DNA from: Silvanigrellaceae bacterium
GTDB lineage: Bacteria > Bdellovibrionota_B > Oligoflexia > Silvanigrellales > Silvanigrellaceae
Assembly: GCA_049423385.1 (NCBI GenBank)
Contig: JBMSQQ010000099.1
Coordinates: 1-12,353, forward strand
Direction of reading: 5' to 3'
Length of the DNA stretch: 12,353 nt
Part shown: positions 3,332 through 12,353 of the stretch, piece by piece
How positions within the stretch are numbered: position 1 is the first letter of the stretch
Layout: every line of letters starts with the position of its first letter
The notes under the pieces: model-generated
Told to the model about the DNA's origin: nothing
What the model saw: the letters and a program-made list of their open reading frames with translations, nothing else
Database searches by the model: none
Program-made: the position numbers and the translations under genes

Positions 3332-5023
3332 TTAGACAGATAACCTACCAAGCCAAGCCTGCATCCTGAGCTTTTTTTGCGCCGATGCCGTCGACATGCT
3401 GCGCACCAGCCCAAAGGGTTCACGCGCCGGAGGCCAAGGTCTGTCGTATTTTCCAAGGCACCAATAGATCCCCGTATATGAATTCGGATCACGTCCATCG
3501 AGAGAGTACTTGTTGTTGAGGTACTCCATGCGCTGCAAGGCTTCCTCGGGTCCGTTGGACCAGCGAACGATGCCCTTGCCCCAGAGCATCCGCATGTAAT
3601 TGTGAATCACTCCCGTGCGCAACAACTCACGTTGCGCAGCATTCCAAACCGGATCCGGACTTTGTCCCGCCTCGAGCTTCTCAAGCTCAACCTGACGCGA
3701 ACTTGGCGGAGTGAATTTCCGCAGGGTCTCGGCTGCCCAGTTTGGAACAAGTTGCAAACTCCCCAATGCGATTCCCGAACGATAGGCATAGTGTGACATG
3801 TTCTGTCCCAGCTCACGCCAGGTGACGAGTTCATCGATGAATTTGCCGGCAGATGTTTCAGCATGAATCTGCTCCGCACTTTCAACGCCCATGCGTTTTG
3901 CGGTCTCCGCCAGAATCGTTCGACTGTGGATCATTCCAAAATGCAGCCAAGGAGAAAGGCGTGAGGAACAAGCCTCATCGGGATGATTTCGTTCCTCTCC
4001 ATATCTTCCAATGTCATTTTTCAAGAATTGTTGCAGGCGTTTCAATGCCGGCGCTTCCCCACCCAGGAAAACGGAACTCCCAAAAACGCTGGGGCTGACA
4101 CGAGCAAAGGCACTGATGGCCCTGCCATATTCAAGCGCATCAAAATTTCGCGTGCCGACCGTGTCACCCAGCAGCAATTCGCCATCCAAAGCCAGCTTGC
4201 GATCAAAGACAAGACGCTCTGCAATCATGCTCTCAATGGCAAGTTTTTCGCGCATGGCAGTGGCAATATAAGGCTTCAATTTTGGCCTTATGAATCGCGC
4301 GGCAGCTTCAACCTTGGCGTATTTGAAGAGCGGAACCAAACCACAATCATCCACCAGAACAAACGGCGCCTCGGCAGCCTTTTTCTCGGTGAGCCGCTTT
4401 GAACGCAATGCGATGTCGGGAAAAATGTAAAACGTGGCCCAATCACAAACGACCGCAGAAGCCCTTTCGAGCAGCTTCGCGACGATTTGGGAATTGCGAA
4501 CCTGTGCCGGCTCACTCAACAAACCGGTCGTGAAAGCCTTCTCGGGAAGCAAGCTCGAATCAATCACCGCCGACACGTTTTTTTCCGGGTCGACACGCGG
4601 ATCGGCTCCCTGCGGCACGAAGATGTAACCATCCAGCTGCGCAGAGTTGTGTGATGCTCCCTGACCGACAAAAGAATGGACCCGCTCACTCGACCACGGC
4701 GCATTGCCCGACATGGCCTCAATCACCAATACCGGCTTTTTAAGCCATTTTGAAAGAACGCCCGCAACAGCAAGCCCGGCGTTGTCGCTCGAACGCCTTT
4801 GGACGGTCATCAGATAAACAACGTAGTCGCCTTCGACAGGCTGGGAACGCGCTGCTTTGTTCAGCACCGAGGCCAGTTTGAGAGCATCCGCAGGGGCTGA
4901 AGTCCAGGAAGTGAGGGGCTGCGGATCTCGCGCATCGCCATCACCAAAAACCAACACGCGGTCGAGAAACAACCCACGTTCAGCCAATTCCCCGCAAAAA
5001 CGCTGCGCCTGTTGATTGCCCAT
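3332..5023 (-). CDS. phr: Class II CPD (deoxyribodipyrimidine) photolyase
   Basis: Class II C-terminal signature DPVWNAAQRELLRTGVIHNYMRMLWGKGIVRW...YLNNKYSLDGRDPNSYTGIYWCLGKYDRPW...FGLVRSMS, SRLSPWLHFGMI, and N-terminal VVYLMTVQRRSSDN. Start set at ATG 5023 (AAGGA upstream); the track's TTG 5104 overlaps the divergent aroC start. Confidence 0.92.
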   Translation of the reverse strand: MGNQQAQRFCGELAERGLFLDRVLVFGDGDARDPQPLTSWTSAPADALKLASVLNKAARSQPVEGDYVVYLMTVQRRSSDNAGLAVAGVLSKWLKKPVLVIEAMSGNAPWSSERVHSFVGQGASHNSAQLDGYIFVPQGADPRVDPEKNVSAVIDSSLLPEKAFTTGLLSEPAQVRNSQIVAKLLERASAVVCDWATFYIFPDIALRSKRLTEKKAAEAPFVLVDDCGLVPLFKYAKVEAAARFIRPKLKPYIATAMREKLAIESMIAERLVFDRKLALDGELLLGDTVGTRNFDALEYGRAISAFARVSPSVFGSSVFLGGEAPALKRLQQFLKNDIGRYGEERNHPDEACSSRLSPWLHFGMIHSRTILAETAKRMGVESAEQIHAETSAGKFIDELVTWRELGQNMSHYAYRSGIALGSLQLVPNWAAETLRKFTPPSSRQVELEKLEAGQSPDPVWNAAQRELLRTGVIHNYMRMLWGKGIVRWSNGPEEALQRMEYLNNKYSLDGRDPNSYTGIYWCLGKYDRPWPPAREPFGLVRSMSTASAQKKLRMQAWLGRLSV

Positions 5024-5097
5024 GAGCCATTTTCCTTTACTCTTGAGGTGGCCCTCGTCTCGGGCTAGATCAACCACAATGTGAAACGGGGCGGACG

Positions 5098-6240
5098 ATG
5101 GCAAGTCAAATTGGGGTTATTTTCAAGGTCAGCACATTTGGTGAATCCCACGGACCAGCGGTTGGCTGCGTTGTCGACGGTTGTCCTGCCGGAGTTCCGC
5201 TCGACACGAAAGTTATTCAAGCCGAACTGAATCGCCGCAGACCAGGGCAAAACAAATTCACCACGGCGCGCAATGAGCCCGACACATGCAAAATACTTTC
5301 GGGTGTGGAAAACGGAATCACGCTCGGAACACCCATCGCAATCGTCGTGGAGAACAAGGATGCACGCCCCGCTGACTATTCAGACTCGCAATCCATCTTT
5401 CGTCCAGGCCACGCCGATTACACGTATCACGTGAAATTTGGAGTCTCGGCCCGCAGTGGTGGTGGCAGAGCCAGCGCCCGCGAGACGATTGGCCGTGTTG
5501 CAGCGGGAGCCGTCGCCAAGCAGATGCTTAAAAAAATCTGCGGAGAGAAAATTGCGGTTCATGCCTGGGTTCAGCGCATCGCCCATATCGATTGTGGAAA
5601 CGTGACCCGGCCATTGCCCACTGACTCCATTGAGTCCTCTGATTTGAGAACACCGCATCCGGAAGCTGAAGCCAAAATGAAGGAACACCTCGAGAGCCTG
5701 ATGCAGGCTGGTGACACTGCAGGTGGATTGATTCGCTGTGTGGTTGAGGGTGTGCAAACGGGCTGGGGCGAACCCGTCTTCGACAAACTCGAGGCAGAAT
5801 TGGCAAAAGCCATGCTGAGTCTTCCTGCGTCCAAAAGCTTCGAAATCGGTTCAGGGATTGCGGGCACATTCAGATCGGGTTCCGAAGAAAACGATGCGTT
5901 CATCCAATCCGACAGCGGCAAGACAATCACCCGCACCAACAACAGCGGTGGCATCCAGGGTGGAATCAGCAATGGCATGGACATTGAGTTTTCCGTGGGA
6001 TTCAAACCGGTCTCATCCATTCGACAAGCACAGGACTCGGTTTCCAAAGATGGCAAACCCCAAAAGCTGGAGATTCAAAAAGGCCGGCATGATCCCTGCG
6101 TCCTGCCAAGAGCCGTGCCGATTGTTGAAGCCATGACCTGGCTCACGTTGGCTGATCACGCACTGCGGGCTGCACTCAACCGAGTTGATTCGCTGGCAGG
6201 TTTCATGACTTCAAATCATCAAATGCAGAGTCCATCATGA
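5098..6240 (+). CDS. aroC: Chorismate synthase
   Basis: Signatures STFGESHG, RRRPGQ, RPGHADYT, GGGRASARET, TNNSGGIQGGISNG, GRHDPCVLPRAVPIVEAM. Confidence 0.98.
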   Translation: MASQIGVIFKVSTFGESHGPAVGCVVDGCPAGVPLDTKVIQAELNRRRPGQNKFTTARNEPDTCKILSGVENGITLGTPIAIVVENKDARPADYSDSQSIFRPGHADYTYHVKFGVSARSGGGRASARETIGRVAAGAVAKQMLKKICGEKIAVHAWVQRIAHIDCGNVTRPLPTDSIESSDLRTPHPEAEAKMKEHLESLMQAGDTAGGLIRCVVEGVQTGWGEPVFDKLEAELAKAMLSLPASKSFEIGSGIAGTFRSGSEENDAFIQSDSGKTITRTNNSGGIQGGISNGMDIEFSVGFKPVSSIRQAQDSVSKDGKPQKLEIQKGRHDPCVLPRAVPIVEAMTWLTLADHALRAALNRVDSLAGFMTSNHQMQSPS

Positions 6241-7223
6241 GCCAGCGCGTTGATGCGATAAAATTCATATCCGAGTTGCAGTCGGCGAAGGAAAACCCGC
6301 GGCTCAAGATAGTCCTCACCGACAACTCGCTCATCCGCAAATTGATTGCAGACAGGCTTCACAGGCTTGCGGGTGTGCGTCCTCAACTCTTCTCCGGCAA
6401 GTCTGCAGTTCAGGAAGCAGTGGAATCATTGTCAACAGGAGATCTGTTTGGCGAGCCTGCTCCAGCCTGGATCGAACTTTCCGAAAAAATGAGCGCGAAA
6501 CAATGGACGGAAGCTGCGGGACAATTCTCTCTCCTCAGTGAACCTGCGCGCCAGGAATTGTTTGTCCTGGCACCTGCTGCCAATCGGCATGGCGCACCCG
6601 AGGCCAAGGCACTGCCATGGAACGCGGAAGTTTTGGTGATTTATGAACCACAGCGTTCGGAAGGGCTCGAGATCCTAGCGATGCTCGCACCCAGGCATGG
6701 ACAAGTCATCAGCCAGGCCGGAAAATCGCAAATCCAACAATGGTGCATTGCCGCCTACGAACACTACAGTGCAGATCTCGAAGCTTGCGACCTTCATTTT
6801 GAACGGATGGCAAAGGGGCATCTTGCGTTCGAAGCTGCTTTTGTAGCCAAGACCAGCCTCGATGCATTCGATCTCGTCGAGGCATTCTCCACTGGCGACA
6901 TCAGCCTAGTGCATCTGCGCATGGCTCAACTTGAGCAGACTGGCGAAGACACCAGCAGTATTCTGTCGGTTTTTGCCTATACCGGACGCCAGGTTGTCGC
7001 ATTTCAGTCTGCACTGGCCAAGACAGGGAACGTTCGTTCAGCTCATGAGCAGGTTAAAACCCCTTACCCTTCCCAAGCCCGTATTGAGCGTCTGGCGAAA
7101 CTTGTGTCGACAGACAAATGGGCCCGTTTTTTTCTGGCAGCAGCGGAACTTGAGCTGCGTTGTCGAAACCAGCGCGACGCCCACAGTTGGCTGGCTGTCG
7201 AGCTGACTGGCCTTCTCTCCTGA
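6237..7223 (+). CDS. holA: Probable DNA polymerase III delta subunit (diverged)
   Basis: 328 aa, ATGA overlap with aroC. HolA-like elements: ESLSTGDLFG (SLF-type clamp-contact motif), DAFDLVEAFSTGD starting the C-terminal domain, and a helical C-terminus ending AAELELRCR...WLAVEL. Similarity is weak, so the call is tentative. Confidence 0.62.
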   Translation: MSQRVDAIKFISELQSAKENPRLKIVLTDNSLIRKLIADRLHRLAGVRPQLFSGKSAVQEAVESLSTGDLFGEPAPAWIELSEKMSAKQWTEAAGQFSLLSEPARQELFVLAPAANRHGAPEAKALPWNAEVLVIYEPQRSEGLEILAMLAPRHGQVISQAGKSQIQQWCIAAYEHYSADLEACDLHFERMAKGHLAFEAAFVAKTSLDAFDLVEAFSTGDISLVHLRMAQLEQTGEDTSSILSVFAYTGRQVVAFQSALAKTGNVRSAHEQVKTPYPSQARIERLAKLVSTDKWARFFLAAAELELRCRNQRDAHSWLAVELTGLLS

Positions 7224-7274
7224 AATCTGATTCAATTGAAGGCAAGCCAAGTTTGAAAAGAGGTTGAACCGCGC

Positions 7275-8753
7275 ATGCAAACAGATGGTCAGGAAGTCTC
7301 AAAAACATTGCGTGTCCTGCAAAACATCAGGGTTTACCTGGTTGAAGACGATCTCCCCACGGCTCGCGTCTACCAGAAGCTCCTTCAGGATGCAGGTGCC
7401 ATCGTCGAACACTTTGCCACCGCATCGTCATTTCACGATCGCATGAAAAACAGCGACGAATGGGAAGGCCATGACTCCCTGCGTCCACAACTTGTGCTTG
7501 TCGACCTGATCCTACCGGACGGTTCGGGATTGGAACTTATCGAACTGTGGCACAAACGCTGGCCACACATTCCGGTGATTGCCATCACGGCCTATGCAAC
7601 GGTCGACACCGCGGTCACCGCCATGAAAGCCGGCGCGTTTGATTTTCTTCGCAAACCGATAGAACTGGAAGACCTTGTCCTGGGCATGCAAAAGGCCCAG
7701 CAGCACGGGGAACTGTTGCGCGAAAACAAATCCCTGAACCATGCCGTGCATATTCTGAGCATCGCCCAGACTTTGGCAGGAGTTTCCGAAAAAAAGGCGC
7801 TGCTCAAAACCTATCTCAAGCTCATCACCCGTGAGATCAAAACGAGCGAAGGGTTCTCGTTCTTTTTCGATGCCAACCGCTCCTATCCCGAACTTCTTCT
7901 GGATTTGAGGCAAGCGGGCCAAGGCAGAACCGAACCCCAGGAAGTCATCCAGCAGTCGTTGTCGCCCCTCATTCGAAACAGGGAACCGGTGCCCGAAAAC
8001 TTCGCTGAAGTGGACTCCGTGACTCTCATGCAGCCAAACATAATCGCCGCGAACCAATCTTCCTTCGTCGTGATTGAATTCAAGAGCCCCACCGGCAACA
8101 GCGGCTTCATTGCCCTTTCCAAGGAAGGACTTGCTCAACAAGCGTTGCTTGATGCCCTGCATCAAGTCATGCCGATCACCATGCAGGCAGCTCGCACGTT
8201 TCAAAATCTGGATGTGGCAACATCGCTTTCATTGGTCGACGAACTCACAGGCTTGTACAATCAACGCTTCATGGAAGTTTCGCTGTCGCGGGAAGTGGCA
8301 CGCAGCCAAAGGTACGGAAGCCCTGTCTCACTGCTTTTCCTTGATCTCGATCGTTTCAAATCGATCAACGACACCTTGGGCCACGTCGTTGGCAGTCAGA
8401 TGATCAAGGCCGCCGCAAAGACAATGCGTGATCTCATACGTGATTCGGATCAACTCTTGCGTTATGGCGGCGATGAATTCTGTGTCATTCTGCCAAACAC
8501 AACGCTCGAAGGTGCACACATCTTGGCAGAGCGCATCCGCTGTGTCTTTCATGAAAAGACTTTCAACCTGAGCGATTCAACCGGCGTGACAGACGCCAAC
8601 AAACTGAACATCACCACGAGCATCGGGGTTGCCTGCTTTCCGGAATCGGCACAAACGGTTCAGGAACTCGTCAAGGAGGCGGACGCTGCGATGTATGCAG
8701 CAAAGAAGGCTGGAAAGAACTGCGTGAGTCTTGCACGCACGCAAGCACTTTAG
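7275..8753 (+). CDS. Response-regulator dinucleotide cyclase, REC-middle domain-GGDEF, Hypr/GacA type (candidate 3',3'-cGAMP synthase)
   Basis: REC: VYLVEDD, LVLVDLILPDGSG (phosphoacceptor Asp), ITAY, FLRKP. GGDEF: DELTGLYN, DLDRFKSINDTLGHVVGSQ, I-site RDSD (8439-8450), GGDEF (8466-8480), ADAAMYAAKKAGKN. Ser (AGT 8394-8396) replaces the canonical GHxxGD Asp. Confidence 0.9.
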   Translation: MQTDGQEVSKTLRVLQNIRVYLVEDDLPTARVYQKLLQDAGAIVEHFATASSFHDRMKNSDEWEGHDSLRPQLVLVDLILPDGSGLELIELWHKRWPHIPVIAITAYATVDTAVTAMKAGAFDFLRKPIELEDLVLGMQKAQQHGELLRENKSLNHAVHILSIAQTLAGVSEKKALLKTYLKLITREIKTSEGFSFFFDANRSYPELLLDLRQAGQGRTEPQEVIQQSLSPLIRNREPVPENFAEVDSVTLMQPNIIAANQSSFVVIEFKSPTGNSGFIALSKEGLAQQALLDALHQVMPITMQAARTFQNLDVATSLSLVDELTGLYNQRFMEVSLSREVARSQRYGSPVSLLFLDLDRFKSINDTLGHVVGSQMIKAAAKTMRDLIRDSDQLLRYGGDEFCVILPNTTLEGAHILAERIRCVFHEKTFNLSDSTGVTDANKLNITTSIGVACFPESAQTVQELVKEADAAMYAAKKAGKNCVSLARTQAL

Positions 8754-9832
8754 ATGGTCTCCTGCGACTCTTCTTCACTGGCCCGATTGTTGAACTGAAT
8801 CAACAACTCGGACAAGGAACGGGAGGTCTCTGCGGTAAAATTGATGAATGACACGCCATGCCAATTCATTTGACCAACGATTTCAACCCATCTGACCTCG
8901 CAGGTCACGTTGGAAAGGCCTTTGCTCACCAACAACGAGTTCCAATCCTCTCGACCTGAAGTGATGGTGACGTTGATTTGTTCCTTTCGGGCAAATGCAG
9001 ACGGGAACTCGAGGCAAAACCCATTTTCCGAAAAATCCACAACCCGGCCTGAAAGTCCTTCACGTGTGACTGCATTGAGCGGCACATGACACAACCATGG
9101 AATACGAGGAGAAGCGCGCTTTGAGCCGGTTCGCACCAGGCGAAGAGCGCCTTTCAGAAGCTCCGCATCATTTCCAAATGGATTGCAATCCCATGCTTCA
9201 AACAAACCTGCCTGATGCTTCATCTGAAGGTAACGACGCCCCCAGAGTGCACTGACTCCGAAATCCAGCGGTTTGCCGTGATCATCTATAATGGTTTTGA
9301 CCTTGGGGCTCACCAAAACCCGAAAAATATCGGCTGCACTTTCCAGACGCTTTGAGAGGTTGACGGTCTCACCAATCAGCGTCACATCCGGATGCACATC
9401 ATCGGCGAGACTCAAATCCCCCATCAAAACAGGGCCGGCATTGATGCCGATGCGCACAGGCAGAGCGTGCCATCTTTTATGGTCCTTTTCATTGGGCGAC
9501 GTTTCAGAATCAAGAAAGCGCTTGGCCAATTCACGTTGAATTTGGATGGCGGCAGCAATGGCCGACATGGATGCCTCGGCAAGATAACTTTCCTCGTGTT
9601 CGCGAGTGCTGTCGTAAAAGTAACACAAAAGACCGTCGCCCAGTGTCTTGTTGACTTGTCCATGATGCGAACGAACAATCTCAGCGATGCGGCGCAGGCA
9701 CAGCCTGAGTTCAGAAAAAACAGTCGCGACGGATTTTTTCCCGGAAATTCGTGAAAAACCCTCGACATCGACAAACATGACCACCGCCTTGATCTCGCGC
9801 GGTTCGATTCCAAGCTGGGTTATATTCGTCAT
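8750..9832 (-). CDS. Class III adenylate cyclase fused to a C-terminal PilZ domain
   Basis: Cyclase motifs VMFVDVEGFS, NKTLGDG, VRIGINAGPV, DVTLIGETVNLSKRLES. PilZ motifs RASPR (9104-9118) and DFSENG (9020-9037) 22 residues apart, then CEVRW and HGVSF. No transmembrane segment seen. Confidence 0.9.
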   Translation of the reverse strand: MTNITQLGIEPREIKAVVMFVDVEGFSRISGKKSVATVFSELRLCLRRIAEIVRSHHGQVNKTLGDGLLCYFYDSTREHEESYLAEASMSAIAAAIQIQRELAKRFLDSETSPNEKDHKRWHALPVRIGINAGPVLMGDLSLADDVHPDVTLIGETVNLSKRLESAADIFRVLVSPKVKTIIDDHGKPLDFGVSALWGRRYLQMKHQAGLFEAWDCNPFGNDAELLKGALRLVRTGSKRASPRIPWLCHVPLNAVTREGLSGRVVDFSENGFCLEFPSAFARKEQINVTITSGREDWNSLLVSKGLSNVTCEVRWVEIVGQMNWHGVSFINFTAETSRSLSELLIQFNNRASEEESQETI

Positions 9833-9835
9833 AAA

Positions 9836-9877
9836 GGGCTCCCTGGAGTTGCTACCATGCTACTGCCCGGGGAGCCC
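9836..9877 (-). promoter_or_regulatory. GC-rich inverted repeat covering the cyclase SD sequence
   Basis: Arms gggctccctgg (9836-9846) and ccggggagccc (9867-9877). On the minus-strand RNA the 3' arm CCAGGGAGCCC contains GGGAG and is followed by UUU-AUG (start at 9832). Confidence 0.65.
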
Positions 9878-9903
9878 AATTTGCAATCAACGAAAACGAT
9901 TGA

Positions 9904-10725
9904 TTACTGACGGATTTTGCTGCGCAGTTGTTTGAGTTTGGCAGCCGCCTCAAGATGCCGAGATTCAAGATCGGCAAGATGTTTTTCGGCCTTCCCTGGA
10001 TCTTCCGAACTGGTGAGAAGCAAACCCAGATGCCCTTCCATTTCATTCAGCTGAAGCTGCTGGCGCGAAAGAATCTTGGCGGCCTTGAAAAGATCGCTGT
10101 CTGCAACCGAATTTTCGGCAGCAGGAACAGGCGCAACCTTGCTGCTGCTGTTGGCTGTCGAGGAGTCGCTTGCCGACGAAAGTTCAGGCTTCGCTGCAAC
10201 AACGTTTGCCGATGCCACTGCATTGACTGGAGACGTTTGAGCTTGCTCCTGTGCAAGCCCCTGGGTCGGCGAGGCTTGAACAAGATCGTTCGTCACTGTG
10301 CTTTGTGACGACTCGTTGGAGCCCATCTGGGATTGCAAAGCAGGCTCATCCGATGTGGACTTGCTGGTTGCTTTGGTCGAATCCGACAACGACAAGATTG
10401 TGCGAATTGTTTCAACTTCAGGCGAGTCGGATGTGAGCCGCCCGGTTCCAATAGCGAACCAGAGAGAACCCAAAATCGTCAGCAGGAATCCGCGCATCAG
10501 CCAACGTCCGGGTCCAACGCGGGAGCTTCGGAAATTGTCAGTAGCCTCTGCAAACTGGCTCATCGCATAGTCAAACCTGCTCTTGGCATTTTTGCTCGTG
10601 GCCCGCGACGAACCTGCGAGAATGGAATTTTGTGGCAACGACAACGGAACCACATTGGATTTGATGTTCTTGTCGTTGTTTCTGATCTCGTCAGGGCCAA
10701 AAGACATGGGAAATTGAGAGTTCAT
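9904..10725 (-). CDS. Hypothetical bitopic membrane protein with Ser/Thr/Ala/Gln-rich linker and helical C-terminal domain
   Basis: 273 aa from ATG 10725 (GGAGG at 10739-10735). One hydrophobic segment WLMRGFLLTILGSLWFAIG (about 10447-10503), a low-complexity middle, and a heptad-like C-terminus (LSRQQLQLNEMEGHL...LADLESRHLEAAAKLKQLR). No family recognised. Confidence 0.75.
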   Translation of the reverse strand: MNSQFPMSFGPDEIRNNDKNIKSNVVPLSLPQNSILAGSSRATSKNAKSRFDYAMSQFAEATDNFRSSRVGPGRWLMRGFLLTILGSLWFAIGTGRLTSDSPEVETIRTILSLSDSTKATSKSTSDEPALQSQMGSNESSQSTVTNDLVQASPTQGLAQEQAQTSPVNAVASANVVAAKPELSSASDSSTANSSSKVAPVPAAENSVADSDLFKAAKILSRQQLQLNEMEGHLGLLLTSSEDPGKAEKHLADLESRHLEAAAKLKQLRSKIRQ

Positions 10726-10750
10726 GGCACAGGTCCTCCGAGGCCATGCT

Positions 10751-10767
10751 TGCAAAATCCGTGCCAG
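10751..10767 (-). promoter_or_regulatory. Sigma54 (RpoN) -24/-12 promoter
   Basis: Minus strand CTGGCACGGATTTTGCA matches YTGGCACGRNNNTTGCW with exact GG-N10-GC spacing. Predicted +1 near 10740, just before the SD of 9904..10725. Confidence 0.8.
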
Positions 10768-10908
10768 AAACACGCCTTGCCAATAAACCGCAAATATTCA
10801 TAAACATTGAGGTTTAATTCAAAAACCAAACCCAATCCGCGAAAAACTCGGAAGAAGTGGGTAAACAGTGTAAAGAAATTGTTCAGTCGAGCAGCAGGGG
10901 AATCCGAG

Positions 10909-11692: not shown

Positions 11693-11769
11693 TGGTGGGT
11701 CTGGGCTGAGTTGAACAGCCGACCTCGTGCTTATCAGGCACGCGCTCTAACCACCTGAGCTACAGACCC
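11693..11769 (-). tRNA. tRNA-Ile (anticodon GAT), CCA encoded
   Basis: GGGTCTG TA GCTC AGGTGGTTA GAGC G CGTGC CTGATAA GCACG AGGTC GGCTG TTCAACT CAGCC CAGACCC ACCA; 77 nt, all four stems pair. Confidence 0.98.

Positions 11770-12353
<584 letters not shown>

Follow-up and report, generated by a model that had tools for sequence, protein, structure and literature searches.

Convergent genes for a putative Hypr-type GGDEF response regulator and a cyclase–PilZ fusion in a Silvanigrellaceae genome

A convergent pair of genes was analyzed in a stretch of 12,353 nucleotides (hereafter the window), which is contig C99 (JBMSQQ010000099.1) of a draft genome, termed G000 (3.47 Mb in 183 contigs, 90.6% complete), from a freshwater Silvanigrellaceae bacterium (Bdellovibrionota, Oligoflexia, Silvanigrellales). 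Gene 1 encodes a response regulator with a predicted Hypr-type GGDEF domain, that is, one predicted to make cyclic GMP-AMP (cGAMP), and gene 2, on the opposite strand, encodes a soluble fusion of a class IIIb cyclase domain to a PilZ domain (Table 1). The two open reading frames (ORFs) meet at cttTAGatggtc and overlap by 4 nt, the stop codon of gene 1 being TAG (8751-8753) and that of gene 2 being TAA, the complement of 8750-8752. A preliminary description of this DNA had reported a phosphorylatable receiver–GGDEF gene with the Hypr serine, a cyclase–PilZ gene with intact catalytic and ligand motifs, and the 4-nt stop overlap, and all three observations were borne out in this genome.

Table 1. 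Features of the gene pair and its immediate neighbors. Positions are those of the window.
Feature	Position	Strand	Basis
Gene 1: orphan response regulator with predicted Hypr-type GGDEF domain, 492 aa	7275..8753	+	ORF, Pfam, motifs, fold match
Receiver domain, phospho-acceptor Asp77 (codon 7503-7505)	7332..7679	+	Pfam Response_reg 20-135; conservation
GAF-like middle domain, residues ~150-320 (lead)	7722..8234	+	AlphaFold2 (AF2) secondary structure; Atlas lead
GGDEF domain, Hypr signature	8232..8720	+	Motif, alignment, fold match
GGDEF-domain sites	Gln330 8262-8264; Ser374 8394-8396; GGDEF 398-402 8466-8480; inhibitory site (I-site) R389-D392 (RxxD)
Gene 2: soluble class IIIb cyclase–PilZ fusion, 360 aa	8750..9832	-	ORF, Pfam, AF2, folds
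Cyclase homology domain, residues ~12-222	9167..9799	-	CyaB 3r5g alignment, site table, fold
PilZ domain, residues 238-345	8798..9121	-	Pfam, conservation, fold matches
TTAG, shared stop codons of convergent genes 1 and 2	8750..8753	.	Sequence
holA-like gene (DNA polymerase III delta)	6237..7223	+	NCBIfam TIGR01128, E 2.4e-11, below cut-off
289-aa neighbor of gene 2	9904..10773	-	ORF; 71-nt gap, same strand, upstream of gene 2

Both ends of the gene 1 product were matched by Pfam over the curated cut-offs (Response_reg, residues 20-135, E 3.4e-20; GGDEF, residues 320-482, E 1.3e-46). The residue set of a two-component receiver (acidic pair, Asp, Thr/Ser and Lys) is complete, with Asp77 and Lys127 invariant and Asp25, Asp26 and Thr105 nearly invariant among 20 family sequences, and the receiver fold was matched at Z 19-21. 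Within the GGDEF domain, Ser374 stands at the place of PleD Asp344, in the motif DLDRFKSINDTLGHVVGS (GHVVGS), and the cross-dimer position, which precedes Ser374 by 44 residues without a gap, is occupied by Gln330 and so is not Arg. This position is taken to be that of PleD Arg300 (Asp344 minus 44), on the PleD numbering as we assume it and on the distance between Tyr304 and Ser348 in a paper in eLife (2019). Invariance extends to Gln330, Ser374, the GGDEF motif, the I-site residues R389 and D392, Asp77 and Lys127 in 20 of 20 family members, drawn from 19 genomes. An AF2 model of gene 1 (mean predicted local distance difference test score, pLDDT, 82.9) found its best structural match in the Geobacter Hypr GGDEF domain 6d9m, with Z 24.3 and a root-mean-square deviation (rmsd) of 1.9 over 161 aligned residues at 45% identity.

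According to the eLife 2019 paper, Hypr GGDEF domains carry Ser in place of Asp, and this Ser functions with GGDEF only, the combination of Ser and GGEEF being inactive, a pairing rule referred to as the Goldilocks model. The same paper gives the cross-dimer residue as Arg in 94% of diguanylate cyclases, and states that Hypr enzymes with Tyr, Ser, Ala or Gln at this position make mostly cGAMP, while those with Arg make more cyclic di-GMP (c-di-GMP). In Bdellovibrio Bd0367, cGAMP synthesis is lost upon the equivalent S214D exchange. Gene 1 carries all three of the Hypr marks that can be checked in a sequence, namely Ser374, a cross-dimer residue other than Arg (Gln330) and GGDEF rather than GGEEF. 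It is likely to be a Hypr (cGAMP-making) GGDEF enzyme, and this call is firmer than one made from the serine alone because Gln330 and GGDEF join Ser374 and are invariant in all 20 members.

The closest known systems are GacA of Geobacter (5VS9/6D9M) and Bd0367 of Bdellovibrio bacteriovorus, the latter from the same phylum, Bdellovibrionota, as gene 1. All three are receiver-regulated GGDEF proteins with Ser at the PleD Asp344 place (Ser347/348 in GacA and Ser214 in Bd0367), a cross-dimer residue other than Arg (Tyr304 in GmGacA), an I-site of the RxxD type and the GGDEF form of the motif instead of GGEEF. Gene 1 differs in having an extra, lineage-restricted domain of ~170 residues between the receiver and the GGDEF domain, in carrying Gln instead of Tyr at the cross-dimer position, and in being one of two paralogues in its genome; its product, moreover, is predicted from sequence. 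The family was seen in Silvanigrellaceae only and, on its predicted activity, is an extension of the Hypr enzymes to this group; its architecture, which includes an orphan domain, is new. Ser-type GGDEF domains also occur in other families of Oligoflexia, the GHxxGS motif being present in shorter proteins of 348-455 aa at three loci (L041, L042 and L044, in genomes G027, G031 and G036). They seem common across Oligoflexia, judging by Ser in 24 of 24 motif-matching rows.

The middle domain of gene 1 had no Pfam match in any of the 20 members (E values up to 10), and its profile matched no PDB sequence. Searched against 1.84 billion proteins, the profile retrieved six cluster representatives, none from a known family. 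In the AF2 model helices and strands follow one another in a GAF-like order, and a language-model Atlas placed the domain near GAF clusters at 0.91, as a lead only; note that the fold searches with the whole gene 1 model were filled by receiver and GGDEF matches, so that the middle domain was barely probed. Its identification as a GAF domain is treated here as a lead.

A GAF domain at this place would allow signaling in the reverse direction, in which gene 2 supplies cyclic AMP (cAMP) as a ligand for the GAF-like domain of gene 1, cAMP binding turns on cGAMP synthesis, and the dinucleotide feeds back through PilZ. There are precedents. GacB of Myxococcus xanthus is a GAF–GGDEF Hypr enzyme that is activated by cAMP through its GAF domain (half-maximal effective concentration, EC50, ~79 nM) and inhibited by c-di-GMP, and the Xanthomonas pair XC_0250/XC_0249 reportedly links a cyclase to a GGDEF protein that senses cyclic nucleotide monophosphates (cNMPs). 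Gene 1 shares with GacB a Hypr GGDEF domain preceded by a further domain, which in GacB is a sensor, and through GacB the two messengers cAMP and cGAMP are known to be connected. That connection runs from cAMP to cGAMP, and gene 1 differs in adding a receiver and in having a middle domain that is not recognizable as GAF by sequence. The GAF-like secondary-structure order and the GAF neighbors in the Atlas speak for the reverse direction; however, the Pfam, PDB and profile searches leave a GAF identity not established, the middle domain is kept by GGDEF orthologues in genera without gene 2, and 11 other cyclase domains are encoded in the genome. We consider this direction of signaling very unlikely.

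The gene 2 product was matched by Guanylate_cyc (residues 16-183, E 1.2e-14) and PilZ (residues 238-345, E 1e-08), both over the Pfam curated cut-offs. The best alignment, to Pseudomonas aeruginosa CyaB (3r5g), placed D22, K62, D66, T151, N158 and R162 at the catalytic positions, and the class IIIb residue set is complete in the G000 protein. From the class III literature we take these residues to be the two metal-binding Asp, the Lys and Thr substrate pair, and the transition-state Asn and Arg. An AF2 model (mean pLDDT 85.2) matched CyaC 1wc1 (Z 21.7) and CyaB 3r5g (Z 21.5) over residues 9-222, and the c-di-GMP-bound PilZ domain of YcgR 5y6g (Z 12.7, rmsd 3.0, 113 aligned) over residues 237-358, with the likewise ligand-bound PilZ folds of PP4397, MotI, MrkH, Alg44 and BcsA also among the matches. 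A comparison of the PilZ region with PDB sequences returned nothing significant, and it was the fold search that settled the assignment. In common with P. aeruginosa CyaB and Spirulina CyaC, gene 2 has the cyclase fold, the Lys/Thr pair, the two metal Asp, the Asn and the Arg; unlike them it has no MASE2 or other N-terminal sensor and carries a C-terminal PilZ domain instead; no other cyclase domain in the genome is as divergent, and its orthologues lose a metal Asp.

The PilZ domain contains K238-R239-x-x-x-R243 (KRASPR, an RxxxR motif) and D266-x-S268-x-x-G271 (DFSENG, a DxSxxG motif). These motifs are canonical, which favors c-di-GMP as the ligand. As in YcgR, Alg44, BcsA and MrkH, an RxxxR motif, a D/NxSxxG motif and a PilZ barrel (Z 10-12.7) are found next to a domain that is presumably under PilZ control, the output in gene 2 being a nucleotide cyclase. 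The preliminary description had suggested that this PilZ might be a receptor for cGAMP, an idea that finds no support in the sequence because both motifs have the form that is canonical for c-di-GMP. In the titles, abstract openings and passages covered, no PilZ domain that binds cGAMP and no protein receptor for Hypr-made cGAMP was found. Similarly, no described cyclase–PilZ protein was found among titles and the opening lines of abstracts, and the PilZ survey of Galperin and Chou (2020) may list the architecture.

Apart from a few metagenome clusters, the short cyclase–PilZ form is restricted to one genus, with 23 clusters at >=45% identity. Outside it, the nearest relatives are proteins of ~780 aa, 27-34% identical, composed of CHASE2, membrane helices, a cyclase domain and a PilZ-like end. 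G000 encodes such a protein on contig C20, as do most of the related genomes. CHASE2 and cyclase domains were present in 8 of 8 such paralogues and PilZ in 4 of 8 at E values up to 0.01, though over the Pfam cut-off in only one of the eight; the C terminus of all eight is homologous to that of gene 2. Because its nearest relatives outside the short form are CHASE2–cyclase–PilZ proteins, gene 2 looks like a truncated derivative that has lost its sensor. The periplasmic CHASE2 domain and membrane helices of the long Oligoflexia proteins are both missing from gene 2, and most of the long proteins are non-canonical at the aligned RxxxR positions, in contrast to the canonical PilZ of gene 2.

The cyclase domain also matched the PADLOC PycC model PDLC00734 (E 5.8e-19) and had cytidylate/uridylate cyclases among its fold matches (Z 16-19), as a Pycsar-type anti-phage cyclase would. 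The class III fold is common to PycC models, however, and such matches are therefore expected, while the K62/T151 pair agrees with that of the adenylate cyclase CyaB. Moreover, no cNMP-binding or TIR effector domain was found in the neighboring genes, so that the locus does not fit the system definition, and gene 2 lies in a stable housekeeping block across the genus. A PilZ fusion is, to our knowledge, not a described feature of Pycsar, and we hold an anti-phage role of this type to be extremely improbable.

The class IIIb catalytic residues are not conserved among the orthologues of gene 2. Counted by genome, in the 12 genus genomes that cover the site (G000 included), residue 66 is Asp in four (G000, G012, G010 and G003), Asn in seven and Glu in one; counted over 24 family clusters it is Asp in 5, Asn in 11, Glu in 1 and Gly in 7. 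The seven G66 clusters have also exchanged K62 for Gln or His and N158 for Gln, so that three catalytic residues are lost, whereas the Asn and Glu forms retain K62, T151, N158 and R162. In the outgroup paralogues the site is Asp throughout, and in the tree the Asp clade is sister to one Asn clade, within an unresolved base. This distribution is more simply explained by repeated loss of an ancestral Asp at residue 66, because Glu and Gly codons lie one base from Asp and two from Asn. The PilZ residues R239, R243, S268 and G271 are, by contrast, invariant in 24 of 24 clusters, and in every orthologue conservation is higher over the PilZ part than over the cyclase core (54-57% vs 33-41% in the dead-site clade, for example). 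Since cyclase residues have been lost while the PilZ motifs stayed invariant, the pattern of conservation indicates that the constrained function of the gene 2 family is dinucleotide sensing, and not cAMP synthesis.

It could be that gene 2 itself is a dinucleotide receptor whose cyclase domain does not make cAMP or has ceased to do so. The domain might instead serve as a nucleotide-binding or dimerizing output, or pair with another cyclase of the genome as the C2-like partner in a heterodimer. The six catalytic residues that are complete in G000 and in three close species, and the Asp found at the site in all outgroup paralogues, do not fit such a protein. The repeated loss of the second metal Asp (to N, E or G) does, the codon distances suggesting independent events, as does the set K62, T151, N158 and R162 kept in the N and E forms, which is what a C2-like subunit would retain. 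The same can be said of the better conserved PilZ domain, of the class III cyclase-like ATP-binding protein 6yii among the fold matches, and of the dozen cyclase domains in the genome. On balance a non-catalytic or heterodimer-only role of the cyclase domain is rather doubtful, and cAMP synthesis by the G000 protein is plausible on its residues.

The preliminary description had inferred a functional coupling of the pair, while rating convergent orientation as weaker evidence of linkage than an operon, and had proposed a synteny comparison as a check. The adjacency itself held up: 10 of 12 other genomes of the genus have the two genes side by side in convergent orientation, both being whole in eight of them and the locus being cut by a contig end in two (G003 and G008). 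In G006 each gene lies at a contig end, which is compatible with adjacency. The arrangement was also found on a metagenome contig (L095) from the dead-site clade, where the cyclase–PilZ protein is 46% and the GGDEF protein 73% identical. In G007 the genes are separated, across two contigs, by other ORFs spanning at least 3.9 kb. This insert (L116 3766-6594 and L117 1-1081, on contigs C210 and C40) holds about six small ORFs, including genes for a START-domain protein and a PP2C/SpoIIE phosphatase.

The wider comparison did not single out the pair. An eight-gene, mostly housekeeping block (photolyase-like, aroC, holA, GGDEF, cyclase–PilZ, the 289-aa gene, bolA and glutaredoxin-like) is equally syntenic, and the adjacency of the pair carries no extra information because the whole block is conserved in the same loci. 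In other genera of the family, the GGDEF orthologues (42-51% identical, all with Ser and Gln) have no adjoining cyclase–PilZ gene, and in G019 and G015 the order aroC–holA–GGDEF is kept with the cyclase–PilZ gene missing. Neither is the exact 4-nt stop overlap conserved: across 13 loci, some of which are the same assembly filed twice, the stop-to-stop distance was -48 (five loci), -4 (two), +2 (one), +25 (one), +33 (two) and +114 (two). A complex prediction with the two full-length proteins and their alignments scored 0.00 in two runs, which amounts to no verdict. Judged by gene order, the pair looks like ordinary synteny, inherited within one Silvanigrellaceae genus, and the case for a linked system is weak. 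In its proposed form the coupling is not supported, given an adjacency limited to one genus, the background synteny, the split in G007 and a cyclase whose catalytic residues are not conserved.

These data bear most directly on a dedicated relay, in which phosphorylated gene 1 would make cGAMP as the specific ligand of the neighboring PilZ domain and thereby switch cAMP synthesis, PilZ being a protein receptor for Hypr-made cGAMP. In its favor, the genes stay together in 10 of the 12 other genomes and on the divergent metagenome contig, and their convergence is tight, with overlapping 3′ ends in 7 of the 13 loci. Of the four intact GGDEF enzymes in G000, two are Hypr-type, so that cGAMP may be a major dinucleotide, and the parts of the literature covered describe no protein receptor for Hypr-made cGAMP. 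The equally syntenic housekeeping block, the partnerless GGDEF orthologues outside the genus, the separation in G007, the canonical c-di-GMP motifs of the PilZ domain and the loss of cyclase residues from most orthologues in an unchanged neighborhood all argue the other way, and a dedicated relay is in our view unlikely. A closed loop would demand still further steps, with PilZ receiving Hypr-made cGAMP and gating cAMP synthesis, cAMP acting on the GAF-like domain of gene 1, and the cyclase having decayed to a sensor or pseudo-enzyme in sister species; we regard this as highly improbable.

The explanation that we favor, at roughly even confidence, is that the two convergent genes are transcribed separately, that PilZ gates cAMP synthesis within gene 2, and that the ligand may come from any GGDEF enzyme of the cell. 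From the domains, motifs, folds, synteny and residue losses described above, we infer the following products, ligand binding, gating and coupling. A kinase would phosphorylate Asp77 and the GGDEF domains of gene 1 would pair, possibly aided by a ligand bound to the GAF-like middle domain. The enzyme would then make 3′,3′-cGAMP together with some c-di-GMP, subject to feedback at the RxxD I-site; cGAMP is expected because Ser374, Gln330 and GGDEF are all present. Binding of a dinucleotide by the PilZ domain of gene 2 would alter the cAMP output of a cyclase homodimer, making a dinucleotide-to-cAMP link within one protein, and such PilZ-modulated cAMP synthesis is probable in G000 because the class IIIb catalytic set is complete. 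The ligand would most likely be c-di-GMP, or dinucleotides bound promiscuously, and could be supplied by any of the four intact GGDEF enzymes, gene 1 included.

Several observations weigh against this explanation. The two genes stay together on the metagenome contig although the cyclase there is of the dead form, and the 3′ ends overlap in more than half of the 13 loci (7/13); the retained pairing and the overlaps could point to a linkage beyond chance. In addition, the cyclase domain of gene 2 has the lowest Pfam score among the 12 of its genome (55.6 bits), Asn or Glu stands at D66 in 8 of the 12 genus genomes, and the combination Q/H-G-Q is found at K62-D66-N158 in 7 of the 24 family clusters, so that the gene 2 family may be drifting to a non-catalytic role.

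The wider second-messenger repertoire of G000 comprises five GGDEF proteins (two Hypr-type, two canonical with Asp/Arg/GGEEF, and one degenerate), 12 class III cyclase domains, six cNMP-binding domains, eight PilZ domains and four proteins of the HD-GYP type; no EAL domain was found in this 90.6% complete genome. Half of the intact GGDEF enzymes (2/4) are thus of the Hypr type. The second of these is a paralogue of gene 1 on contig C46 (14787-16337; L122 4788-6338), which is 48% identical, has the same order of receiver, orphan domain and GGDEF domain, and carries the Ser, Gln and GGDEF marks. Its neighbors encode a TPR protein, an alpha/beta hydrolase and an SLT transglycosylase, with no kinase, cyclase or PilZ gene among them. 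A variant of HD-GYP with RxxQ or RxxN has been tied to cGAMP-specific phosphodiesterases. Three of the four HD-GYP proteins of G000 have RxYK after the HD-GYP motif and one has RSYH (L120 391-1437, contig C175). The RxxQ/RxxN variant was seen in none of the four, a result that is a lead only, the position of the motif being partly our assumption. A search of the genome for the GEMM-I riboswitch (RF01051) gave no match and is uninformative, as the control matched in 0 of 14 genomes.

Cross-talk between c-di-GMP and cAMP runs mostly by indirect routes or in the opposite direction, as with Bd1971 and GacB. As a soluble protein of 360 aa, gene 2 would be a compact and easily purified test case for direct control of cAMP synthesis by a dinucleotide, and its natural D66N, D66E and dead-site orthologues offer a ready series for the transition from enzyme to pseudo-enzyme. 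Both genes are worthwhile biochemical targets singly.

Upstream of the pair, the window contains pepF, a GH1 glycosidase gene, a class II photolyase-like gene, aroC and the holA-like gene; downstream lie the 289-aa gene, which has no known function, bolA and a glutaredoxin-like gene. The holA-like gene directly precedes gene 1, with a gap of 51 nt, and is a housekeeping neighbor rather than a kinase; a Pfam scan of the window proteins found no kinase. The 289-aa gene is possibly cotranscribed with gene 2. Its product contains a single hydrophobic helix and a long stretch rich in Ser, Ala and Thr, ends in a helical tail at the C terminus, and evolves very fast, with 28-56% identity among orthologous loci within the genus. 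A promoter and terminator scan of positions 6900-10900 gave counts at or below the shuffled expectation, and the sequencing runs listed for the locus are 11 of DNA and 0 of RNA.

The product of the photolyase-like gene (3332-5104, minus strand) is 590 aa long. The class II photolyase model TIGR00591 matches it over residues 210-586 (E 8.6e-77, below cut-off), and an N-terminal extension of ~200 aa, which has no family match, precedes this region. The start of the gene overlaps that of the divergent aroC gene by 7 nt. A scan of the window with Rfam returned nothing beyond the end of a 16S rRNA gene and one tRNA. The former is the 3′ part of the gene (11915-12353, minus strand; Rfam model positions 1093-1533) at the contig end, and the tRNA follows it on the same strand at 11696-11769, so that the window abuts an rRNA operon.

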